A stretch of 64,000 nt of DNA from an uncultured Gammaproteobacteria bacterium (GTDB lineage: Bacteria > Patescibacteriota > Microgenomatia > Levybacterales > GWA1-39-11), in the NCBI GenBank assembly GCA_964436385.1, contig CAYTCO010000002.1, positions 12,720 through 76,719 on the forward strand, given 5' to 3'. Below the pieces are notes generated by a model. It was not told the DNA's origin and did not search any database. It saw only the letters and a program-made list of their open reading frames with translations. Position 1 is the stretch's first letter. Each line of letters begins with the position of its first letter. Position numbers and translations under genes: made by a program. This document shows positions 5,021 through 61,932 of the stretch, in pieces.

Positions 5021-6838
5021 ATGAATTCATCAGAAGCTTTAATTAGCAGTCAAGTTGGTGCTGCCTACTTTTCGCTTGATCCTTACATGAAAAGAAGCTT
5101 TCAGCAGAGAATGAATATTGGTATTACATCTTGCGAATCGGAAAGTGGAGCAACACCTGAAATGTTAGCGGGTGCCCGAGATTTGGGCTTTAAAGAGCTC
5201 TCATTAGATTTGTTATTCGGTGCTATCAATTACAAATTGGCTCAGAATGGTATAGAACTACGTGCAGGAAATAATTATAAAAAAGAAAGAGGGCAGATTG
5301 TATCGAATATACTTGATGATATTCAAATTGAGAAAGGTCCTGATAGTTTTCGGATAGCCTTTCGTAGCGATGAGGATAAAGATACGAGCGAGAAAGGAAA
5401 ATCTCAGTTTGATGGAGAAGTAGCTGAAATAACTCGATTGATGAATGATAGGGCAATATATGGAAGGGTGCTTGGATTTGTAAAGAAATATTTGGCAGAA
5501 AATGTCGGCATTGTTGTGTCCCAGTCTGCTCCAGAACAATTGGTCGAAAACGGTTTAGGAATAGTTATATGTGACAAGGAAACAGAAGTAAAGCCTGACA
5601 TTAGAAGAAAAGCAAGCAAAGTATTCTTAGGTGGAAATAGGACAAGTGCAAAGTTTGCTTTGTTAAGAGAGATAGTATTTACCGAGGCAATTTTGGAGCA
5701 ACAGAAAGCATTAAAAAGGAGTATCGAAAATAGAAAAATAAATCTTGAACCGAAGTTTAAACTATCAGATTGGCCAAGAGACCCATTAATGACTTATATT
5801 AGGGAGTGTGTTGCACGGCAGACTGGTGATTTTCTTGGAAAAACAGAGATGTTATGTGATCCCCAAGATTTAAAGTATCAGGTGCTTTTTAGACTGACTA
5901 CATTTCCTGTTAAATCGCTTTTTCACGCGGGTCAGGAACTGGAGCAATATTTACAAGCAAATGGAAATTATCATGATTGGCGTAATATATTAAAAACTGA
6001 TCCCGATATTGTGAGAAGTTATTCCATGAATGATGACCTTGTTGAATTTGTAATTTCTGAACAGGCTGCAGTTATCCAAGAGAGAATGGAGAGAAGTCCA
6101 CTACCTCTTGAAAGCATTCTTACGCCTCGGGGCATTTTTGCTGAACCGGGTTGGGTAATTCAGAGGAAAAATGGTACCGTGAGGGCTGTAAAAGAGGAGG
6201 GGATTACGTCAGTTAGCGACAGTGTAGGTTTGCGTTTTGAGGAAATCGATCCTGCACTGGCTGCTCAAATTCATAACGACTTACACTATATACATACCCC
6301 AAGGGCTGATATCTCATTTGGTTTGTTTGTCGAAGGAGAAGAGCTTCCATTCTCAGCCCTTGCTTTTGAGAAAATAGACAGAGATTATAAGGCAAACACA
6401 TTAATACTTAATGGATACGATCCTCGCAAATGTTACGACCTTACACGACTTTATAGTAGGCCGGGCACACCAGGTAATACGAGTAGTAGCATGTTTTCTC
6501 TTGCATTTGGGTATCTGAAATCTAATTATCCAGAAATTCAGGCAGTTATGTCTTCATTTATGCCTAGTTATGCAACTGGTATATCAATGACTTCAGGGGG
6601 TTTTGATAATCCTGTTCTTATCAAGCCGCTAAAACATGTTTTTCTTCCAAAAGACTTGGGAAAAGTTAAAGCATTCGAACATTTAACAAAAAGGAGAATG
6701 GTCAGCAACGTGGCCAATTCTCTGGTTAGTCAAGTTCCCCTCCTTCCAACAGCAGAGTTGCTGTGCTCATTACATGGTCCAGCATTCTCTCCCGCGGAAG
6801 AAGTAAATAAATTTATGATTGAGGTGGTAAACCCATAA
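5021..6838 (+). CDS. hypothetical 605-aa protein; C-terminal third GNAT-like (tentative)
   Basis: Long uninterrupted ORF behind a strong promoter. The C-terminal segment (YDLTRLYSRPGTPGNTSSSMFSLAFGYLK ... ATGISMTSGGFD) resembles the beta4-alpha3-beta5 core of a GNAT fold. No family is recognised for the N-terminal 400 aa. Confidence 0.55.
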   Translation: MNSSEALISSQVGAAYFSLDPYMKRSFQQRMNIGITSCESESGATPEMLAGARDLGFKELSLDLLFGAINYKLAQNGIELRAGNNYKKERGQIVSNILDDIQIEKGPDSFRIAFRSDEDKDTSEKGKSQFDGEVAEITRLMNDRAIYGRVLGFVKKYLAENVGIVVSQSAPEQLVENGLGIVICDKETEVKPDIRRKASKVFLGGNRTSAKFALLREIVFTEAILEQQKALKRSIENRKINLEPKFKLSDWPRDPLMTYIRECVARQTGDFLGKTEMLCDPQDLKYQVLFRLTTFPVKSLFHAGQELEQYLQANGNYHDWRNILKTDPDIVRSYSMNDDLVEFVISEQAAVIQERMERSPLPLESILTPRGIFAEPGWVIQRKNGTVRAVKEEGITSVSDSVGLRFEEIDPALAAQIHNDLHYIHTPRADISFGLFVEGEELPFSALAFEKIDRDYKANTLILNGYDPRKCYDLTRLYSRPGTPGNTSSSMFSLAFGYLKSNYPEIQAVMSSFMPSYATGISMTSGGFDNPVLIKPLKHVFLPKDLGKVKAFEHLTKRRMVSNVANSLVSQVPLLPTAELLCSLHGPAFSPAEEVNKFMIEVVNP

Positions 6839-22119: not shown

Positions 22120-22464
22120 ATGGATCCGAATTCTGTTCCTTCAGTTGTCGAAAACGTAGAGAAAGACTTGCTAGCGGAAATTGTCGCCAACCTTAAAAGA
22201 AACAAGCTTGATCAGGAAAAAGCACATCTTTTAGCTAAAGAATTTCTTTCCTATTTGCCACCTAAAGATTTTGAGGGCATGATCGCGATACTCCAAAAAA
22301 TGTCAGGACAATATGATGAAGCGCGAGGGGTTCTTATCAAATATCAAGCAATAGCTCAAAAGAATGAGGATTTGGAGAAGGCAAGTCAAATGGCACAGCA
22401 CATAAATCAAGGAAATATTGAAAAAGCGATAGAGATAGCGAAAGGAGGTCGAAATGCCGGGTGA
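22120..22464 (+). CDS. hypothetical small helical protein (module copy 1, gene A)
   Basis: 114 aa. The N-terminal motif DLLAEIVANLKRNKLD...LAKEF is shared with the ORF at 24034. Confidence 0.5.
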   Translation: MDPNSVPSVVENVEKDLLAEIVANLKRNKLDQEKAHLLAKEFLSYLPPKDFEGMIAILQKMSGQYDEARGVLIKYQAIAQKNEDLEKASQMAQHINQGNIEKAIEIAKGGRNAG

Positions 22465-23662
22465 GGGAGGAATGGAAGGCGGAGCTCCTGCTGCTATTGA
22501 AGGAGCCGCTGGGGCTACAGGTAAGGCCGTTAAAACAGCATCAGAAAGTCTTGGTGGAGCACTTGAAAATCTTGGCGAAGCACAAGGAGCAGCTGCCGCT
22601 CTAGGTAGTCTTGCCGAGACTGGTGCTGGAGAAATACCTGGTCAAGATATAGACAAGTGGATAGGCGATCCTCTAAAAGAGACCGGTGCAGGGGAAATTC
22701 CTGGACAAGACATCGACAAGTGGGTAGTAGAACAGCCCTCAACGGCTCAAGAAGCAGTGCCAGCTCAGATACCAAGTATTGGAAAAGCTCCTGCGGTAGC
22801 TACCCAAGCAGAAGCAGTTCCAAACTCCACACAAGCAGGCGTAGGTGAGATTTCACCAGGTGATGTTGCAAGAGCGCTTGAGAAACCTGCCGCCGGACAA
22901 CCTGCAAAACCTGAAGCAACTCCAAATAAAGTTATTCCTGGAGCTTCCGAGGCAACAACTCCTGCCGTATTAGCCCCAGAACAAACAATTGATGATCCAG
23001 TCGACAGAGTTGCTGCACAGGCGACAGAACGACCTGCTGTTACTCAACCAACAGAAACTGTCCAAGCGGCTGCTGAGGCTCCAAACCCAGCAGTTGAAAC
23101 AGCGGCGGAAGATGTTGCAAGCCCTGGCACTATAGAGGCGGAACAAAACAGCGGCGAAACAGAGGAAGCAACAGAAATAACACCTGAAGATATAGCTAAG
23201 GCAGACGCAGAAGGAGCAGAAAATGATGCAGCTGCAGCTCAGGAAGCAGAAGCCGTTACCGAAACAGCAGTCGAGGCAAGAAGTATAGAACAGCAAACAG
23301 AAGAAATGGTTACCCTTACAGAGCAATTAAAAGGTCTTCGAGAACAACAGACTGAGATAGCAAATAAAATTGATGAGGCCATGGCCAAGATAGACTCTCT
23401 TCGAGATGCAATTAGGCAAGCTATGGAAAAAGCTCCGCCTGAGCAAAAACAACAATTCAGCCTATTGCTAAGATTAATTCAAGCCTTCTTTGACATGTTT
23501 TATATAGACGCCAGAGTAGAGGGTGGCGGAATACGTCAAGCGAGGAACAGAGAAATTCAAGAGAAAAGAGCAAATACACAACAAAAACCTGCTGACACCA
23601 AAACCCCACCACCTCCACCTCCTCCAGCTCCAGCACCAGCATCCGCACCTCTAATTTTCTAG
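22454..23662 (+). CDS. hypothetical Ala/Glu/Pro-rich protein with coiled-coil and poly-Pro tail (module copy 1, gene B)
   Basis: 402 aa. AAAGGAGG lies 5 nt upstream, and the gene overlaps its upstream neighbour by 11 nt. Internal duplicate ETGAGEIPGQDIDKW occurs twice. C-terminal PPPPPPPAPAPA. Confidence 0.5.
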   Translation: MPGEGGMEGGAPAAIEGAAGATGKAVKTASESLGGALENLGEAQGAAAALGSLAETGAGEIPGQDIDKWIGDPLKETGAGEIPGQDIDKWVVEQPSTAQEAVPAQIPSIGKAPAVATQAEAVPNSTQAGVGEISPGDVARALEKPAAGQPAKPEATPNKVIPGASEATTPAVLAPEQTIDDPVDRVAAQATERPAVTQPTETVQAAAEAPNPAVETAAEDVASPGTIEAEQNSGETEEATEITPEDIAKADAEGAENDAAAAQEAEAVTETAVEARSIEQQTEEMVTLTEQLKGLREQQTEIANKIDEAMAKIDSLRDAIRQAMEKAPPEQKQQFSLLLRLIQAFFDMFYIDARVEGGGIRQARNREIQEKRANTQQKPADTKTPPPPPPPAPAPASAPLIF

Positions 23663-44705: not shown

Positions 44706-44750
44706 ATCTCCCCATTGACTCCTTCGTTCAATTTCTGTTCAATTAGTGTA

Positions 44751-46742
44751 ATGCCTAAGTCGAATTCATCTAAATCTACCGAAGGTCATCCAAGGATTTT
44801 AATAATTCTCGTTATTCTCGTTGCAATAATTGGAGCGTTGTCTATTGCTTACGTTCTTTTCTCAAAGAACGGATACCTTACACAGAAAGTTGCAAGTATT
44901 CCAAAGATTACAAAGCCCTCACCTGATATGTCTCGTGCCCGTACGATGACAGTTGATCCTTCATCAGAAAATGTTATGCAGGTAACAACAAGAGAAAAAG
45001 TTGTCATCACTCTTACTATTCCAAAGGGAGCCATTGATAAAAAGCAAAACATAAAGATGATTCCATACTATTACAACGATAAAAGTGAGGACCCAAGCGC
45101 TGGTGTTATTTTAAGTCCCGGCAATCTTTCATTTAAGCAGCCAGTCACACTATTCTTTGATCTTTCCGATAGCAAGCTTAGAACAGATGGGCCTGAAAAT
45201 GTAGGAAAAATGGAAACCGTTAGGACAACAGGTACTTCACAAGTCCTGATGATAGATCAAAACGCATCTGAGCTGATACCTACTCTTGTTGCTCGAGAAG
45301 TTGAGACAAGTACTCAGCTTAGGGCTCGTATTTTAACCGGGGGTGGATACCTTTTTTCAGTAAATGGACGTGATCAGAAGAGATGGGCTGAGAATGCTAT
45401 GAAAAAGGAAAAGGTAAATTCACTCAGTATTCTTGAGGCGTCAAGGGTTCTTTTGTCTTCAGGTGTAAGTCTGGACAAGAAAGATCGAAGCAAGGCAAAC
45501 GCTGCAGCTGACAAAATTTTAGGTAAAAAACTTCCACCTCCGCATGAAATGGTTGCTGCATTATCTGTAAAAAAGCTTTTGTCAGACACAAAAACAAGTT
45601 TTAATTTGGTTCCCAAGGCATTAGCCCAAGAGGGTTACATTCCTGCAGCTTCATCAACACCTCGCCAAGTTATTGAATTGATGTGCAAGTCAAAGGGTTA
45701 TATGGTCGAAGACTATGTTGGGTTTGCTGCTGCTGCCGCAACTTATGGATACGGTGACCTTCGAGATAGATGCATGACGGTCGCGCTCAATAAAGCAGCG
45801 GATGATGCTCGCAAGCTTCTGGCGGATAAAAATGCAAGCATAAAGTCCATGCTTATTGGACTTAAGAACCTTCAATTCTTGGGGATTGATGAAGCCGATG
45901 CTCTTGGAGAAAAGCTTATGGAGAAGATTAAATGGAAGGCTGAGGATGAGGCAAAGAGGGTAGCATATGATATAGATTCAAAACCTGTGGAATTAGCAAC
46001 AGAGCTTCAGAAGTTGCAAACACTGGGAGTTGAAGGTGCAACTGCCGAAATATTGACTGAAAGGTTGGTTGAGATACTAGATGAGCAGGAGGCAAATATG
46101 CCAACTCCACCACCTGAAGATTACGAAGAGGAATCGGATTACAGCGAGGAGCAAATTCTTGTCGATCAGGCATGGACAATTATTGGAATTGAACTCCTCA
46201 AAGTTATGGGGATTACCGATATTAGCGAAGAGGGTCTTAAGGAGAAGTTCAAGGAAATGTCAGACAACACAACGTTGTTAAATGAAGCGGCATATGAGAT
46301 GTGCAAAGAGCTGGGCGGAGAGGATTGTGACAGTAATTACAATAAGGCAAAAAGTGATCTCGAGGATGCATTGGAAGAAGGGTACAGAGTTGCTGAAGAG
46401 ATAGGATCAGTTCAGAACAGCGAATATGAGGAGCCAGACTATGATGATGCTGGTGGGAATTATTATTTTGAGGAGGATTTGACTCCGACACCGGGAGATG
46501 GAGATTCTGAATCAATGGAGTGGGAATATGAAGATCCTTCAGATCAGTATGAGGATGATCATGTGCAGGAGGAGGAGAGCGAAGAAATATACATGATGGA
46601 ATCTCAAAGCACAGAAGAAGAGAGTGGATCGGAAGATGAAAGCGAGACAGAAAGCTCTGCCGAGGAAGAAGTTGAAGGTGCAAGTACATCAAATCCTATA
46701 CAAATCCTCATTCAGTACATTTCAAAAGTATTTAGCAACTAA
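44751..46742 (+). CDS. hypothetical membrane-anchored protein with a highly acidic C-terminus
   Basis: About 663 aa starting at MPKSNSS. One N-terminal TM helix and an E/D/S-rich tail. Confidence 0.5.
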   Translation: MPKSNSSKSTEGHPRILIILVILVAIIGALSIAYVLFSKNGYLTQKVASIPKITKPSPDMSRARTMTVDPSSENVMQVTTREKVVITLTIPKGAIDKKQNIKMIPYYYNDKSEDPSAGVILSPGNLSFKQPVTLFFDLSDSKLRTDGPENVGKMETVRTTGTSQVLMIDQNASELIPTLVAREVETSTQLRARILTGGGYLFSVNGRDQKRWAENAMKKEKVNSLSILEASRVLLSSGVSLDKKDRSKANAAADKILGKKLPPPHEMVAALSVKKLLSDTKTSFNLVPKALAQEGYIPAASSTPRQVIELMCKSKGYMVEDYVGFAAAAATYGYGDLRDRCMTVALNKAADDARKLLADKNASIKSMLIGLKNLQFLGIDEADALGEKLMEKIKWKAEDEAKRVAYDIDSKPVELATELQKLQTLGVEGATAEILTERLVEILDEQEANMPTPPPEDYEEESDYSEEQILVDQAWTIIGIELLKVMGITDISEEGLKEKFKEMSDNTTLLNEAAYEMCKELGGEDCDSNYNKAKSDLEDALEEGYRVAEEIGSVQNSEYEEPDYDDAGGNYYFEEDLTPTPGDGDSESMEWEYEDPSDQYEDDHVQEEESEEIYMMESQSTEEESGSEDESETESSAEEEVEGASTSNPIQILIQYISKVFSN

Positions 46743-57732: not shown

Positions 57733-58244
57733 TTATTTTGGGAATCGATCCAGGCACTAACCGAACGGGGTGGGGTGTAATTACTAAGAAGGTAACAGAG
57801 AAAAAGGATACAAAAATTACTTACGTAGGTCACGGCTGCATAATAACAGAGAAAATAAACACAATGCCCGAGAGACTGTTATTGCTTCATGTAACATTAA
57901 ATGAATTGGTTAAAAAACATAATCCTGACTGCTTGATTGTCGAGAATATCTTTTTTGGGCGCAATGTTAAGACAGCCATTTCAGTAAGTCAGGCCAGGGG
58001 AGTGATAATGCTTTCTGCAGCCCTTTTTGATTTACCTGTTTTTGAATATGGTCCAAGCACAGTAAAGTTAACTCTAACAGGTAGTGGTAAAACAGACAAA
58101 AAAGGAGTCCAAGAGACAGTGAGAACATTTCTCAATTCCAACGATACAGTGCTCTCATTCAATGGTAAGAAAGATAAAAAAGATTTCGATGATAGCGCAG
58201 ATGCTCTGGCAATTGCTATCCATCACGCTATAAAATTAGTCTAA
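57729..58244 (+). CDS. ruvC: Holliday junction resolvase RuvC
   Basis: ILGIDPGTNRTGWGVI, VENIFFG and C-terminal DSADALAIAIHH. ATGA overlap with yebC. Confidence 0.9.
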   Translation: MIILGIDPGTNRTGWGVITKKVTEKKDTKITYVGHGCIITEKINTMPERLLLLHVTLNELVKKHNPDCLIVENIFFGRNVKTAISVSQARGVIMLSAALFDLPVFEYGPSTVKLTLTGSGKTDKKGVQETVRTFLNSNDTVLSFNGKKDKKDFDDSADALAIAIHHAIKLV

Positions 58245-59041
58245 TGGATCGCGTACTTCGTCTATTTCAACTCAATAAACGCCAAAAATTCGTCGTTGCA
58301 GTGCTGATTTTGTCTTGTGGCGTTTTCTTAAGTGAATATTTTACCGGCCTTAAATTGGCATTGAGTGCTTTGACTCTTGCCATAGCAACAGACTTGATGC
58401 TTCTTTTTGTGTTGAGAAAAGACATAAAAAACACATTCTTCGGTCCCATCCTGGTGTTGCCCTTTTTCTTTAGTCTTGCTTTCCCTTTTTTCTACACATT
58501 GGTTCCTGAAAGATTACTAAGTAGACTTATTATTACCCTAATTTATGCTTTTGGACTCTATTCACTTTTTCTAACGCAAAATATATTTGCGGTATCGGGA
58601 ATAAGAACGATCAATCTTTTAAGAAGTGCTCGAATTGTAGCATTTGTTATAACTCTTTTAGTATTCTATTTCTTAGTAAATTTCATATTTTCGTTGAGAT
58701 TTCCGCCTCTCTTAACACCTCTTGTTCTGTTGCCGATCGCTTTTTTTATGAACATACAATCACTTTGGACCTATTCTCTTGATACATCTCAAGTTAAGGC
58801 TATAGCAATTTTTTCAGGAGTTATTGCCATATGCATCCTTCAACTGTCTTATGTCCTGGTGTTGTGGCCTGTTAACGCTTCTGTTTATTCTCTTTTTCTG
58901 ACAGGCATTTTCTATACATATTCTGGCCTTTGTCACGCGTGGCTTGAGAGGCGGCTGTTTAAAGGAATACTGTGGGAGTATATTTGGGTAGGATTTATAT
59001 CAGTTCTATTTCTGGTTATCTTTTCTAAGTGGGGAGTTTAA
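58244..59041 (+). CDS. hypothetical polytopic membrane protein
   Basis: 265 aa with about 7 TM helices. Its start overlaps the ruvC stop. Confidence 0.55.
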   Translation: MDRVLRLFQLNKRQKFVVAVLILSCGVFLSEYFTGLKLALSALTLAIATDLMLLFVLRKDIKNTFFGPILVLPFFFSLAFPFFYTLVPERLLSRLIITLIYAFGLYSLFLTQNIFAVSGIRTINLLRSARIVAFVITLLVFYFLVNFIFSLRFPPLLTPLVLLPIAFFMNIQSLWTYSLDTSQVKAIAIFSGVIAICILQLSYVLVLWPVNASVYSLFLTGIFYTYSGLCHAWLERRLFKGILWEYIWVGFISVLFLVIFSKWGV

Positions 59042-59223
59042 GTGATGCAAAAAACTACCATTAACATCCCATAGTATATTAATCTAGTTAAAATTACTCC
59101 TTAATTTCTCCTACAAAATTGTCTTCTTCATACTAAATATTAAATAATAAATATTAAATATTTAACAACAAAAGCGGTGTGGTGAAGTAGAGGAATAGAG
59201 TGTTCTAAGTTCAAATGATATAG

Positions 59224-59252
59224 TTAGATATAGTGGTGTAGCGTCCTATAAT
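59224..59252 (+). promoter_or_regulatory. candidate promoter (TTAGAT-17-TATAAT) firing into the ORF-poor region
   Basis: TTAGAT at 59224-59229, a 17-nt spacer and TATAAT at 59247-59252. The -10 block GCGTCCTATAATA is duplicated at 59265-59277. Confidence 0.4.
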
Positions 59253-59541
59253 AATTAATCATGCGCGTCCTATAATACGAAAAAAGTTCGAAAGTTTCTT
59301 AGTGTTGAGATCATAATTGGGAAGTATGATCTAAACTTTAACAAATGCCTGCATTGATGTTTAGGCTTAGTAGGAGAGCCCCTCCTTACATGGTAAGCAA
59401 ACCGCACACATTCTATTCTAAAACGTGTACAAACAACCTCAAAAGTATCAAAATAGATCGATTTATCAATATAAATTGCGACAAAGACACGAAGAAGAAT
59501 AGAAGGGTTTCACGGAAAATGTGGATATCTTTTCACGGTTT

Positions 59542-60171
59542 TGAGGCTAGAGAATGTTTTTTGGCATGTTCTGAGGGAGCAGAAGCGGACGGAGAATGAC
59601 AAAGATAGCCTCGTTTTGAGGCTAAAAACGCTTCTTTTTGAGGCTAAAGTACTCATATAACAGCACCTCTGGCCCGAGAGTGAGAACAGAACACCCAAAG
59701 AATAGTAAAATTTAAGCTCAAAATGCGAGACGGAAAAGCTACATAAAATCAAGAATTCAAGTCTCTTGAGCGTAGTAAGTACTTCCCCGAGGGAGTGGTC
59801 GTTGTAGAGCTATACTATATGTCGCACAATAATACTTTTACGACATGATATGCACTTCTGAGGCTAAGGCCTTTTCGACCTCTTATGGTTTTAAATGCAT
59901 GAATTTCAACCCGAATTTCGTGTGCTGTGCAAAGGGTACAAATAGGGTTTTATAGCCTACTTTTCCCACTCGTAATGCATTGTTTTTACCCTCTTACTAT
60001 AGGTTTTTAATTGAGCATGGCCAGATTATGCTTTCTGCGGAGCTTTTTTGTTAGTTTTTCTATATTAAATAGTAAATATTTAATATTTGTTATTTAAGAA
60101 GAGGTAACTTTATTGCACCTTACTATTTCAAGGGCCTTAAATCGCATCCTGGAGGGTCTGGCGTGAGGCTA
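59542..60171 (+). repeat. five same-strand copies of TGAGGCTA(A/G)
   Basis: Exact 8-mers at 59542, 59617, 59639, 59859 and 60164, plus the inverted TAGCCTC at 59606 and the near-copy TGAGCCTAA at 60591. Confidence 0.8.
59581..59640 (+). terminator. two-tier hairpin followed by a T-tract (candidate terminator/attenuator)
   Basis: Outer stem AGAAGCG (59581-59587) / CGCTTCT (59629-59635). Inner stem TAGCCTC (59606-59612) / GAGGCTA (59618-59624) with loop GTTTT. TTTTG follows. Confidence 0.4.
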
Positions 60172-60182
60172 AAATAAAGATC

Positions 60183-60518
60183 TTACTCAATTCCAAATTC
60201 GGCTTTTTCTTTGTCTGAAAAGTACCAAAGTGGTTGCTGGGAATCGTCTGGAGCGACGTTTTTAAAAAATTGTTCCCAGTAAGAAATTTCCATAAAAGGA
60301 GAATCTAAATTTACATTGTTATAAGACAATTTTCCAGGCGCATAATACCTAGGCACAATAATTTCGACAACATTAGGTTTAAGCTCTTTTATAAAGGCAG
60401 TATTTTCAGCTTCGATTGCTTCAATTCTTTTAGACCTTGCTGAAGCTATAAATGGTAACTGTTCAAGTAATTTTATGAGAATATTGTACCACTTAGTTGC
60501 ATGACTTATGTCGCACAA
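60183..60518 (-). CDS. hypothetical protein (111 aa, TTG start)
   Basis: Protein-like composition, but a non-ATG start and no RBS. Its start sits inside the repeated 12-mer ATGTCGCACAAT. Confidence 0.35.
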   Translation of the reverse strand: MCDISHATKWYNILIKLLEQLPFIASARSKRIEAIEAENTAFIKELKPNVVEIIVPRYYAPGKLSYNNVNLDSPFMEISYWEQFFKNVAPDDSQQPLWYFSDKEKAEFGIE

Positions 60519-60601
60519 TGAGAGTAGGGTGCTTAATGTGCGACGCCTATTATCCTCAAGTTGACTACTTTCTTGTTCGGGTGCACAATTTGAGCCTAAT
60601 T

Positions 60602-60904
60602 ATGTCTGTAGAAGTAAGGATTGGTGTAGAGCCACAACAACTATCGATTGATTGCCCTCCTCCGCAATCTCCAGCCTTCATCGCTCTTGCTCCAGGCGAG
60701 CGACTTACGATTATTGCAAGTCCAGACGGCAATGGTTTTGAGCTTGAAAGACAACAAAGGCAAGTACATACAGAGTTTAATCTAAATAGAGAAATAAGTA
60801 CTGTGAATTATGACAGCGTTACTAAGCACTTGGCACCAAAAGAAAGAATTGTTCTGGCTACTCTTGAGGATAACATGCATTCAGTTTGCATAGAGGATTG
60901 CTAA
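60602..60904 (+). CDS. hypothetical protein (100 aa)
   Basis: Start set at MSVEVRIG; the track ORF extends to 60497 across the divergent region. No motif recognised. Confidence 0.4.
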   Translation: MSVEVRIGVEPQQLSIDCPPPQSPAFIALAPGERLTIIASPDGNGFELERQQRQVHTEFNLNREISTVNYDSVTKHLAPKERIVLATLEDNMHSVCIEDC

Positions 60905-60975
60905 GTGTTTCTAGTGGCTCTTCTCTTATGTCGTAAAACGTTGAATGATTCAGACTTGTAGTTTATAGTTTATCT

Positions 60976-61932
60976 GTGGAAGATAAAAAGACCCTACCCT
61001 CAAAGCTAGATAAACACATTCACACATACCTTGAGTATTTGGAAATTGAGAAAAACGCCTCAAAGCTTACAATCCGTAACTACAAATTCTACCTGAGTCG
61101 CTTTACTGGTTGGTTTGAGGCTAATCACGCTCAAAAAAACATAAATGACATAAATATTGAGTTAATTAGAAGATATAGAATATGGTTATCTGACTATGTT
61201 GATGACAAAGGAATAACTCTAATGCGTGTTACCCAGAGTTATCACATAATAGCACTTCGCTCTTTCTTACGATTTTTAATCAGAAACGATCACGATACTT
61301 TATCTCCTGAAAAAATAGATCTGCCAAAAGGTGAAAGCAAAAGCCTAAAATTTTTGGGGCGTGATCATTTGCGTGAGCTTATGAATTCAGTTGACACCTC
61401 AACGGAAAGAGGTCTTCGTGACCGCTCAATACTTGAATTGCTATTCTCAACTGGTCTTCGGGTATCTGAGTTATGTAGGCTTAACAGGGACCAAATGAAC
61501 TTCAAAACTCAGGAATTTGGAGTAATTGGGAAAGGTGGGAGAGCAAGAATAGTCTTCCTGTCAGACACCGCTATTTTTTGGTTACAAAAGTATTTTGAAG
61601 TTCGGGAAGACAATTTTCAACCTGTATTTATTAGGTACGCAAAAGGAATAGATCCGATAAATCAGGGAGAGCGGATGAGGCTTACTCCCCGCTCTGTTGA
61701 GCGAATTGTCAGTAAATATGTAAGGCGTGCAAAGCTCCCGGTTGATGCGACACCCCACACCCTTCGTCATAGTTTTGCAACTGATCTTCTATATAATGGG
61801 GCTGATTTGCGCTCAGTTCAGGAAATGCTTGGTCACAAAAATATAAGCACAACGCAAATTTATACTCATGTAACTAACCCACAACTTAAAAATGTCCACC
61901 GCAAGTTTCATCAAGGGAATAAAAGACAATAA
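60976..61932 (+). CDS. tyrosine recombinase, XerC/XerD-like
   Basis: 318 aa with a GTG start. The N-terminal SAM-like domain (YLEYLEIEKNAS..T), then GLRVSEL, HTLRHSFATDLL and LGHKNISTTQIYTHV (catalytic R-H-R-Y context). Confidence 0.85.
   Translation: MEDKKTLPSKLDKHIHTYLEYLEIEKNASKLTIRNYKFYLSRFTGWFEANHAQKNINDINIELIRRYRIWLSDYVDDKGITLMRVTQSYHIIALRSFLRFLIRNDHDTLSPEKIDLPKGESKSLKFLGRDHLRELMNSVDTSTERGLRDRSILELLFSTGLRVSELCRLNRDQMNFKTQEFGVIGKGGRARIVFLSDTAIFWLQKYFEVREDNFQPVFIRYAKGIDPINQGERMRLTPRSVERIVSKYVRRAKLPVDATPHTLRHSFATDLLYNGADLRSVQEMLGHKNISTTQIYTHVTNPQLKNVHRKFHQGNKRQ

Follow-up and report, generated by a model that had tools for sequence, protein, structure and literature searches.

A probable Xer/dif dimer-resolution locus with a long flanking motif array in Candidatus Levybacteria

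Introduction

The recombination site dif, found at the chromosome terminus, is composed of two 11-bp arms and a 6-bp spacer (PMC5357621; PMC2958812). In archaea (Thermococcales and Sulfolobales) one Xer-type recombinase, XerA, is paired with a 28-bp site of this 11-6-11 geometry near the terminus; it has been suggested that partners bind the conserved sequences and inverted repeats next to the archaeal site, and in crenarchaea (Sulfolobales) xerA is found near dif (PMC2958812). The XerS/difSL module of streptococci and lactococci, in which xerS adjoins difSL (PMC5357621), and the XerH/difH module of Helicobacter and Campylobacter likewise link the recombinase gene to a terminus site with near-symmetric arms (PMC5357621, PMC1914069). 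For bacteria of the Candidate Phyla Radiation (CPR), we found no description of a dif site or of Xer control in the full-text literature, within the collection searched. Here we analyze a 64,000-nt stretch of contig CAYTCO010000002.1 (henceforth the window), which the proteins encoded around the region of interest assign to Candidatus Levybacteria (CPR/Microgenomates), and we focus on positions 59042-60182, a region that harbors a 28-bp dif-like site and lies upstream of a gene for an Xer-family tyrosine recombinase.

With 1141 nt, this region is the longest gap between open reading frames (ORFs) of at least 100 aa in the window. An initial annotation had singled it out as the longest stretch devoid of coding sequence (CDS), rich in short repeats and hairpins and followed by two small divergent orphan ORFs and an Xer-like tyrosine recombinase. 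Our analysis agrees with that description, and every motif that was listed is present in its place. Three readings had been put forward: a structured non-coding RNA (ncRNA) spanning 380 nt or more, an origin of the iteron type or a partition site, and an array of accessory sites for the recombinase. The 28-bp core site, the best-conserved element here, had been overlooked. We consider it probable that the region is the Xer/dif dimer-resolution locus at the terminus of the Levybacteria chromosome, with the 28-mer serving as dif and its flanks as protein-binding DNA. In such a system the Xer recombinase, encoded about 1.1 kb downstream, would bind the two 11-bp arms, which are almost symmetric, with strand exchange taking place across the TAATAC spacer of 6 bp; chromosome dimers arising from RecA/RuvC crossovers would be converted into monomers at division, and the site and its recombinase gene would constitute one genetic module.

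The core site and its conservation

The core site, ATGTCGCACAA / TAATAC / TTTTACGACAT (59819-59846, + strand), consists of 11-bp inverted arms around a 6-bp spacer. The arms are complementary at 9 of 11 positions, including all six of the outer ones (6/6), and a search of the 64-kb window that tolerates six mismatches returns no second copy. Two variants, C7>T and A22>G, are both common, and each of them raises arm symmetry. Between 13 and 15 of the 28 positions are identical to those of the dif sites of E. coli and B. subtilis, which is comparable to the 14/28 reported for archaeal dif (PMC2958812). The site shares its length and geometry with classical XerCD/dif; the latter has distinct XerC and XerD arms, whereas the outer arm positions are perfectly palindromic here. 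The difSL site, on the other hand, spans 31 bp with an 11-bp central region, unlike the classical 11-6-11 arrangement seen in this locus, and difH has arm sequences of its own.

Related loci were obtained by scanning species-representative genomes with the product of the gene that immediately precedes the gap, a DUF5656 membrane protein (58244-59041, + strand; Pfam DUF5656, 1e-07), which is the invariant upstream neighbor of the region, after yebC and ruvC. The 32 loci thus identified share the order yebC, ruvC, DUF5656, a gap of 0.25-1.5 kb, variable genes and xer. In all 27 of these protein-anchored loci that are of sufficient length, the core site is present in one copy, always oriented alike and never with more than one mismatch, at 50-88% identity for DUF5656 and 66-86% for xer. 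When the window is compared with related loci by blastn, an island at 59818-59847 stands at 96-100% identity, against about 65-70% for its surroundings and 50-60% for the flanking proteins. Exact matches to the 26-nt core of the site (positions 2-27, two of them degenerate) were also found in 114 metagenome stretches, one copy in each, and the same exact search matched no viral contig. Removal of near-duplicates left 101 lineages. In nearly all of those with enough sequence, yebC and DUF5656 lie upstream of the site and xer downstream, and this synteny persists down to identities of 25-45% for DUF5656 and 48-65% for Xer.

The recombinase

The presumed enzyme for the site is an Xer-family tyrosine recombinase of 318 aa (60976-61932, + strand; Pfam Phage_integrase, 3e-42, and Phage_int_SAM_1), with the SAM-like and catalytic domains typical of phage-integrase/Xer proteins, which are also those of the classical XerCD recombinases. 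Its RHR and Y active-site regions align with solved Xer chains, the closest being Pyrococcus abyssi XerA (4A8E, 1e-39) and then E. coli XerD (3e-33). NCBIfam scores (XerC 247, XerD 244 and XerA 207 bits) all fall under the equivalog cut-offs, and the protein is hence an Xer-family member rather than an assignable ortholog. Matches to the recombinases of the XerS and XerH modules are weaker (125 bits and 6e-11, respectively). At the position of the XerD RQ motif the protein has K-N (LKNVH), where XerA has K-E; the motifs described for these positions are XKX in XerA and RQX in XerD (Cortez et al. 2010, PMC2958812). We infer that the K found in place of RQ matches the XerA motif, and this may in turn imply independence from FtsK.

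The recombinase gene lies 257-3465 nt downstream of the core site in nearly all loci with enough sequence, and each locus sequence shows one xer gene in the vicinity of the site. The locus thus differs from classical XerCD/dif in the single xer seen near the site and in the absence of the XerD RQ motif, and it differs from the XerS and XerH modules in that xer does not directly adjoin the site but follows after 0.26-3.5 kb that hold variable genes. With these modules it has in common the linkage of recombinase gene and terminus site and the near symmetry of the arms. It resembles the archaeal XerA/dif system in pairing what may be a single Xer-type recombinase with a 28-bp 11-6-11 site in the terminus region, in having conserved sequence around that site, in the proximity of site and recombinase gene (as in Sulfolobales) and in that P. 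abyssi XerA is the nearest solved homolog of its recombinase. Unlike the archaeal system, its host is bacterial and its recombinase scores higher against the XerC and XerD models than against XerA. As a side observation, PDB chain 9i5v_14, labelled 'Ribosome-associated translation inhibitor RaiA', aligns full-length to the recombinase (2e-26), and this label is probably misassigned.

Terminus position

The window encodes dnaB, dnaX, aminoacyl-tRNA synthetases and ruvC, a chromosomal housekeeping context, and the presence of dnaB, dnaX and the aminoacyl-tRNA synthetase genes marks it as chromosomal. The placement of the xer locus directly after ruvC is functionally apt. GC skew in the window is positive over 1-65 kb and negative over 66-69 kb, the last part being an extension from an overlapping contig. 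The skew of the genome loci, which reach ±6 kb, is not decisive by itself, and the result presented here makes use of pooled loci with longer flanks. When these are oriented by the site, mean GC skew is +0.06 to +0.14 over the 12 kb upstream; in the binned profile it falls from +0.13 to +0.04 at the core site, passes through zero 4-5 kb further downstream and takes values of -0.02 to -0.06 from +6 to +12 kb (signed positions are relative to the core site throughout). Among non-redundant loci, skew is positive over -9 to -1 kb in 52/52 (mean +0.10) and negative over +5 to +13 kb in 7/7 (mean -0.05). Gene orientation follows the same pattern, since the genes upstream are oriented toward the core site and the switch to the - strand takes place 1-4 kb downstream, after xer and one or two further genes, in most loci. 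This combination of skew and gene orientation is the signature of a replication terminus and not of an origin. Classical XerCD/dif is likewise located in the terminus, at the skew switch.

The flanking motif array

About 900 nt upstream and 330 nt downstream of the core site carry conserved short motifs: GAGGCTA half-palindromes, a TTTCACR pair, one DnaA box, GATATAGTTTGATA and CCYATAAT/CCYATAGT. An alignment of 14 close loci reveals short, highly conserved islands between stretches of unalignable, length-variable DNA. In a census of the commonest 9-mers over 72 full-length non-redundant loci, TGATATAGTTTGATA was found in 59/72, ACTTTTCACG in 48/72 and TGTGGATAAC, which is a perfect DnaA box (TTATCCACA) on the opposite strand, in 47/72; they are followed by TTTGAGGCTAAA (42/72), ACGAAAAAAATACGAAA (34/72), TCCTATAAT (33/72), CCCTACTATAGG (30/72, nearly always at +165 to +175) and AAATCGCAT (21/72, near +305).

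One of these elements had already been listed in the initial annotation as a + strand repeat, TGAGGCTAR, at 59542, 59617, 59639, 59859 and 60164, and it proves to be both enriched and clustered, with seven copies in the window against 0.79 expected (0/100 shuffles attain seven) and five of them in the gap region. The inverted TAGCCTC reported at 59606 is also real, and the near-copy reported with it, TTGAGCCTAA, is located at 60590. In the form of the quasi-palindrome TTKAGSCTMAA (one mismatch permitted), 7/8 window copies fall within 59541-61125, a span of 1.6 kb. Across loci, the heptamer GAGGCTA/TAGCCTC reaches 0.1-0.6 copies per 100 nt from -900 to +400, against a background of 0.007, which amounts to a 10-80 fold enrichment. 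Within the region, the heptamer forms a TAGCCTC-GTTTT-GAGGCTA palindrome with TTTTGAGGCTAA 22 nt downstream (59606-59647, + strand); a degenerate TTKAGSCTMAA copy, TTTAAGCTCAAAA, picked up by the quasi-palindrome search, lies at 59711-59723 (+ strand), and TGAGGCTAA is found 13 nt past the core site (59859-59867, + strand), conserved at +41 in close relatives. A further TGAGGCTAA is seen at 61116-61124, inside the xer CDS and 140 nt past its start codon; it is in the same place in locus L014 and roughly so in L021, and it may reflect either coding constraint or a genuine site. A reading of GAGGCTA as analogous to the FtsK-orienting polar sequences (KOPS) was considered and rejected, the orientation of the motif not being inverted at dif.

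Neighboring GAGGCTA copies in the same orientation are 10-11 or 20-21 nt apart, and TTTCACR pairs are spaced by 23 nt in 49/74 neighboring pairs; the repeat spacings thus show helical phasing. At corresponding positions GAGGCTA and CCYATAAT can point either way, and lineages differ in how the motifs are ordered. Taken together, the phasing, the quasi-palindromes, the orientation flips and the shuffling of motifs make the flanks look like double-stranded protein-binding DNA. The third suggestion of the initial annotation, an array of recombinase accessory sites, consequently stands in part: the region holds a probable core site and repeats that resemble protein-binding sequences, for which an accessory role is conjectural.

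On the upstream side, an extra CCYATART copy, TCCCATAGTA, lies right after the DUF5656 stop codon (59067-59076, + strand) and is conserved in the 14-locus alignment. The two copies of GCGTCCTATAATA reported at 59241 and 59265 were recovered, and they belong to an arrangement of TTCAAATGATATAGTTAGATATAGT and two TCCTATAAT (59244 and 59268) that spans 59210-59276 (+ strand) and has the appearance of a TTAGAT-17-TATAAT promoter; TGATATAGT is found in 59/72 loci and TCCTATAAT in the proportion given above. The spacing of this promoter-like pair is 17-19 nt in 18/37 loci and 1-28 nt in the others, and its second motif is inverted in many lineages. A simple -35/-10 promoter as an explanation for GATATAGTTWGATA and CCTATAAT was rejected, as it fits only about half of the lineages. 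Further along, 59434-59485 (+ strand) comprises a degenerate TAGCCTCAAAA (here CAACCTCAAAAG), a TTGATTTATCAA palindrome and a right-arm-like Xer half-site, ATTGCGACAAA, which reads RCGACAT in relatives. It is followed by a module (59508-59550, + strand) of the form TTTCACGG-TGTGGATAT-TTTCACGG-TTTTGAGGCTAG, where, as noted earlier, the TTTCACGG copies at 59508 and 59531 surround a DnaA-box-like TGTGGATAT (59520-59528; ATATCCACA on the other strand). Within the window these elements are not significant, with 3 copies of TTTCACGG against 1.6 expected and 1 DnaA-like box against 1.07. The TTTCACR pair and the DnaA-like box are meaningful only through their conservation, the pair in its 23-nt spacing (49/74 neighboring pairs) and the box in the presence of TGTGGATAA (TTATCCACA on the opposite strand) in 47/72 loci; ACTTTTCAC is found in 48/72.

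Downstream of the core site, a CCYATAGT motif on the - strand, CCTATAGTAAG (59994-60004; TTACTATAGGT on the + strand), is present in 68 loci and is nearly fixed with respect to the site, at about +164 to +186 in most lineages and at about +200 to +215 in two; CCCTACTAT has a median position of +166 and an interquartile range of 165-171. Over 101 loci, the + strand is purine-rich upstream of the core site and pyrimidine-rich from +50 to +200 (59870-60000 in the window), up to the CCYATAGT motif, with a purine skew of -0.16 to -0.28 and a GC content of about 0.28-0.35. A conserved right-flank island, GCACC..TTTCAAGGGCCTTAAATCGCATCCTGGAGGGTCTGGCGTGAGGCTAAA (60115-60173, + strand), shows 80-96% blastn identity in relatives, and AATCGCAT is found at +270 to +325 in 37 loci.

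Three further features had been noted by eye. The AT-rich blocks at the edges of the region (59130-59172 and 60051-60100) do exist and are direct and inverted repeats of each other, but they are low-complexity, strain-specific sequences that cannot be aligned in relatives. The nested hairpin is present as well, with arms at 59295-59318/59322-59345 that are 79% complementary, and it too is strain-specific and unalignable. In the 'two-tier hairpin' (59581-59640), the inner palindrome is conserved in sequence, whereas the remainder fails comparison with relatives.

RNA, origin and partition readings

As an alternative, one or two ncRNAs could be encoded in the conserved flanks: a + strand transcript from TTAGAT-17-TATAAT near 59227-59252 and a - strand transcript starting near 59990 from CCTATAGT would converge on the 28-mer, and GAGGCUA would be an RNA motif, for instance in a protein sponge. 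Consistent with transcription, the promoter-like pair keeps its 17-19 nt spacing in the 18/37 loci mentioned and the DnaA box follows 6-27 nt past the -10 element in about 14 of those; CCYATAGT is nearly fixed at +165 to +175; the purine-rich upstream and pyrimidine-rich +50 to +200 segments (101 loci) are as expected for convergent sense strands; and 58800-61000 holds 13 promoter-like sites against 6.3 expected. The RNA signals are nevertheless absent. Rfam yields no match at gathering score and nothing relevant at E up to 10, the best match in the region being no better than E = 5. RNAalifold finds no consensus structure in five blocks of 180-300 nt, on both strands and over 13-14 relatives (0 to -7.7 kcal/mol); it predicts only the sequence-conserved palindrome, which in the block of the 'two-tier hairpin' is TAGCCTCA-TTT-TGAGGCTA, and the covariation term for that block is 0.06, with both partners altered in 1/6 pairs. 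Folding either strand as a single sequence gave no useful information. Long-range complementarity near dif matches shuffled controls and is uncompensated across lineages. In addition, half of the lineages have CATAGT or CATAAT as the '-10' element, without the conserved T at its start, the distance of this element to the '-35' element ranges from 1 to 28 nt, and the occurrence of GAGGCTA and CCYATAAT in both orientations and in changing order fits sites in double-stranded DNA rather than RNA words. The structured RNA of at least 380 nt initially proposed is thus not borne out, and we regard an RNA explanation of the region as unlikely.

Two structural candidates proposed by eye did not survive comparison either. 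The AATCGCAT island was taken for a covarying hairpin, for which RNAalifold predicts nothing, and one sub-clade replaces its 3' arm; a long-range helix between the sequence after dif and CTACYCTACTATRGG has duplex energies no better than those of shuffles, with a T/C change that is uncompensated across lineages. No conserved small ORF was found in the region, where the only conserved translations are those antisense to the DUF5656 3' end and across the conserved site.

A replication origin, iteron or partition locus would also account for some components of the array, among them the perfect TTATCCACA in 47/72 loci, the helically phased direct repeats, the AT-rich blocks at both edges of the region in the window and the TTTCACG repeats, which could be thought parS-like. 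There is, however, one DnaA box per locus and no cluster of them, the AT-rich blocks are unconserved, and no match to parS (TGTTNCACGTGAAACA, a 16-bp palindrome) within 3 mismatches exists in 59042-60182, where the TTTCACR copies are direct repeats instead of a palindrome. No dnaA, dnaN or rep gene lies nearby, and the change of skew from positive to negative together with the convergence of genes is the pattern of a terminus. The earlier suggestion of an iteron-type origin or partition site is accordingly discarded as highly improbable.

Additional Xer half-sites and the variable segment before xer

Besides the core site, the loci contain Xer half-sites with a polar distribution: those of the right-arm type are found only upstream of dif (-700 to -200), and those of the left-arm type only downstream (+300 to +1000), with a peak at +500 to +700 and typically 20-50 nt before the xer start. 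In the window, half-sites are located at 59475-59485 (degenerate), at 60508-60544 (two arms) and at 60928-60938. The second of these is a split dif-like site with inverted arms, ATGTCGCACAA ... ATGTGCGAC, 17 nt apart (60508-60544, + strand), which sits between the starts of the divergent orphan ORFs and is kept in loci L001, L002, L011, L012 and L014; because its 17-nt spacer, versus 6 in the core site, is too long for normal crossover, it may be an operator. The last one, ATGTCGTAAAA (60928-60938, + strand), lies 38 nt upstream of the xer GTG start and abuts a predicted TTGAAT-17-TATAGT promoter, and it has an equivalent in most lineages. Its position suggests a candidate element for autoregulation of xer.

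The segment between the conserved right flank (about +330) and xer is a hot spot for variable genes (loci L010-L155). In the window it is occupied by a strain-specific insert (60183-60904), outside the conserved module, with two orphan ORFs (111 aa on the - strand and 135 aa on the + strand) for which the 101 related loci contain no homolog and searches of Pfam, NCBIfam and PHROG gave no match. By eye, other lineages carry there genes for a trehalase-like protein of about 465 aa, RelE/Phd-like pairs, or GH18-like and transaldolase-like proteins. Even in the near-identical strains L001 and L002, whose flanking genes are about 99% identical, the gap is only about 94% identical and different small ORFs precede the recombinase gene. 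Such a hot spot is compatible with the plasticity of the terminus and constitutes no argument against dif.

The same observations could be taken to mean that the 28-mer serves for attachment or exchange by an integrase, which would mobilize the variable genes before xer, as in an integron, a dif-module or a cassette locus of the IMEX type (integrative mobile elements exploiting Xer). The genes between the right flank and xer do differ between near-identical strains and between lineages, with dif-xer distances of 257-3465 nt, arm-like half-sites and the split site border some of the segments, and a mild excess of contig ends is seen less than 100 nt from the site. Yet the inserts lack a second full flanking site, and the order of half-sites (full site first, left-arm-only after) would be opposite to that expected from integration at dif, judging from the IMEX mechanism (PMC5357621). 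No viral contig matches the site, and the site and both of its flanks keep their place at the skew switch, beside core genes, in about 100 lineages. The recombinase, in turn, scores 122 bits (cut-off 265) and 69 bits (cut-off 435) against integron-integrase models, compared with 247 bits against XerC, and contig breaks are expected wherever co-assembled species have an identical 28-mer. We hence deem an integrase site quite unlikely as an account of the locus, even though it does not exclude the preferred one, as mobile elements can exploit a real dif too.

The excess of contig ends is slight, the 100 nt on either side of the 28-mer containing 8 (downstream) and 4 (upstream), versus about 3-5 per 100-nt bin elsewhere (loci L042-L155), and it probably reflects collapse of the assembly graph on a 28-mer common to co-occurring species. 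This simpler explanation led us to reject contig ends as signs of integration events.

Assessment of the dif assignment and of the role of the flanks

Several observations weigh against the identification of the locus as a terminus Xer/dif system. Palindromic 28-mers of 11-6-11 geometry are not rare, with 16 in the window versus 10.6 in shuffles, and the case for dif consequently rests on conservation, context and position. The rule of Kono et al. asks of dif sites that over 4 pairs be complementary when positions 7-12 are set against 17-22 (PMC3025954), whereas the site described here has 3/6 in its window version and 4/6 in the T7 or G22 variants; its inner arm positions are thus less palindromic than those of classical dif. 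The 114 metagenome stretches were chosen by exact match and are for this reason uninformative on the conservation of the core, and single-copy counts cover the 64-kb window and 13-16 kb per related locus. The skew flips 4-5 kb downstream of the core site and not exactly at it, and downstream skew values derive from 7-16 loci per bin. The promoter-like TTAGAT-17-TATAAT, whose spacing is kept in about half of the lineages, leaves room for transcription, and so does the strand-asymmetric tract after dif. Finally, to our knowledge classical bacterial chromosomal dif needs no accessory sequences, and a role for the flanks would therefore lack direct bacterial precedent.

If the dif assignment is correct, the flanking motifs might be occupied by accessory or architectural proteins that assemble into a nucleoprotein platform at the site, and such a platform could govern when or where Xer acts, or else position the terminus. 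Some of the motifs, though not most, may be promoters directed toward dif, and the extra Xer half-sites, one of them right before xer, would be suggestive of autoregulation. A more specific version of this idea, which we put forward as speculative and of low probability, is that the array of about 1.2 kb constitutes a 'resolution platform' that replaces or supplements FtsK/KOPS control in ultra-small CPR bacteria, loading accessory proteins (possibly DnaA), positioning the terminus and licensing an XerA-like single recombinase according to replication or cell-cycle state. Its components would be the phased GAGGCTA quasi-palindromes, the TTTCACR-N16-TTTCACR pair around a perfect DnaA box, the CCYATART motifs, inverted between the two sides, and the polar half-sites.

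The comparison with described systems sets the flanks apart. Classical dif has no conserved accessory flanks, unlike the present locus, and those of archaeal dif are much shorter than the approximately 1.2 kb observed here, with multiple phased motif families that include a DnaA box. The cer and psi plasmid sites offer a parallel in possible mode of action, as a Xer core flanked by conserved, putatively protein-binding DNA that could control recombination or topology. Their accessory DNA comprises about 180 bp on one side only (the XerC side), with sites for PepA together with ArgR or ArcA. In Levybacteria, by contrast, conserved DNA lies on both sides, over about 900 nt upstream and about 330 nt downstream; its motifs are unrelated, as far as can be said with no search aimed at ARG or ArcA boxes, and the locus is at the terminus of a chromosome. 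The MatP/matS system of the enterobacteria is similar only in possible mode, in that short palindromic sites are concentrated around dif (here TTKAGSCTMAA); its 23 matS sites are spread over about 800 kb, whereas 3-8 copies in about 1.3 kb, of unrelated sequence, are seen here. The core finding is then a new member of a well-known system, and it is the long motif array with a single DnaA box around a chromosomal dif that has no direct bacterial precedent.

Should the assignment hold, the core site would provide an exact 28-bp marker of the terminus (search form ATGTCGYACAATAATACTTTTRCGACAT) for Levybacteria-type genomes, of use in closing and checking metagenome-assembled genomes (MAGs) and in growth-rate (peak-to-trough) estimates. 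It would likewise reveal an Xer system in bacteria that is similar to XerA of archaea, and the long conserved candidate accessory sites around a chromosomal dif could shed light on the control of dimer resolution in minimal cells. A false candidate can also be dropped from lists of large ncRNAs.

Other observations

Many species-representative MAGs of the clade (L010-L041) are labelled 'uncultured Gammaproteobacteria' (Third Party Annotation, TPA, assemblies). These labels are probably wrong, because the DUF5656 and Xer proteins of these genomes are 80-88% identical to those of the window and their gene order is that of Levybacteria MAGs. Elsewhere in the window, two large ORFs on the + strand (44715-46742, 675 aa, and 22454-23662, 402 aa) are without a Pfam family at E up to 1e-05, and a 605-aa ORF (5021-6838, + strand) has a weak match to Pfam Mom over residues 404-511 (E 1e-06; 29 bits versus a cut-off of 27.1).

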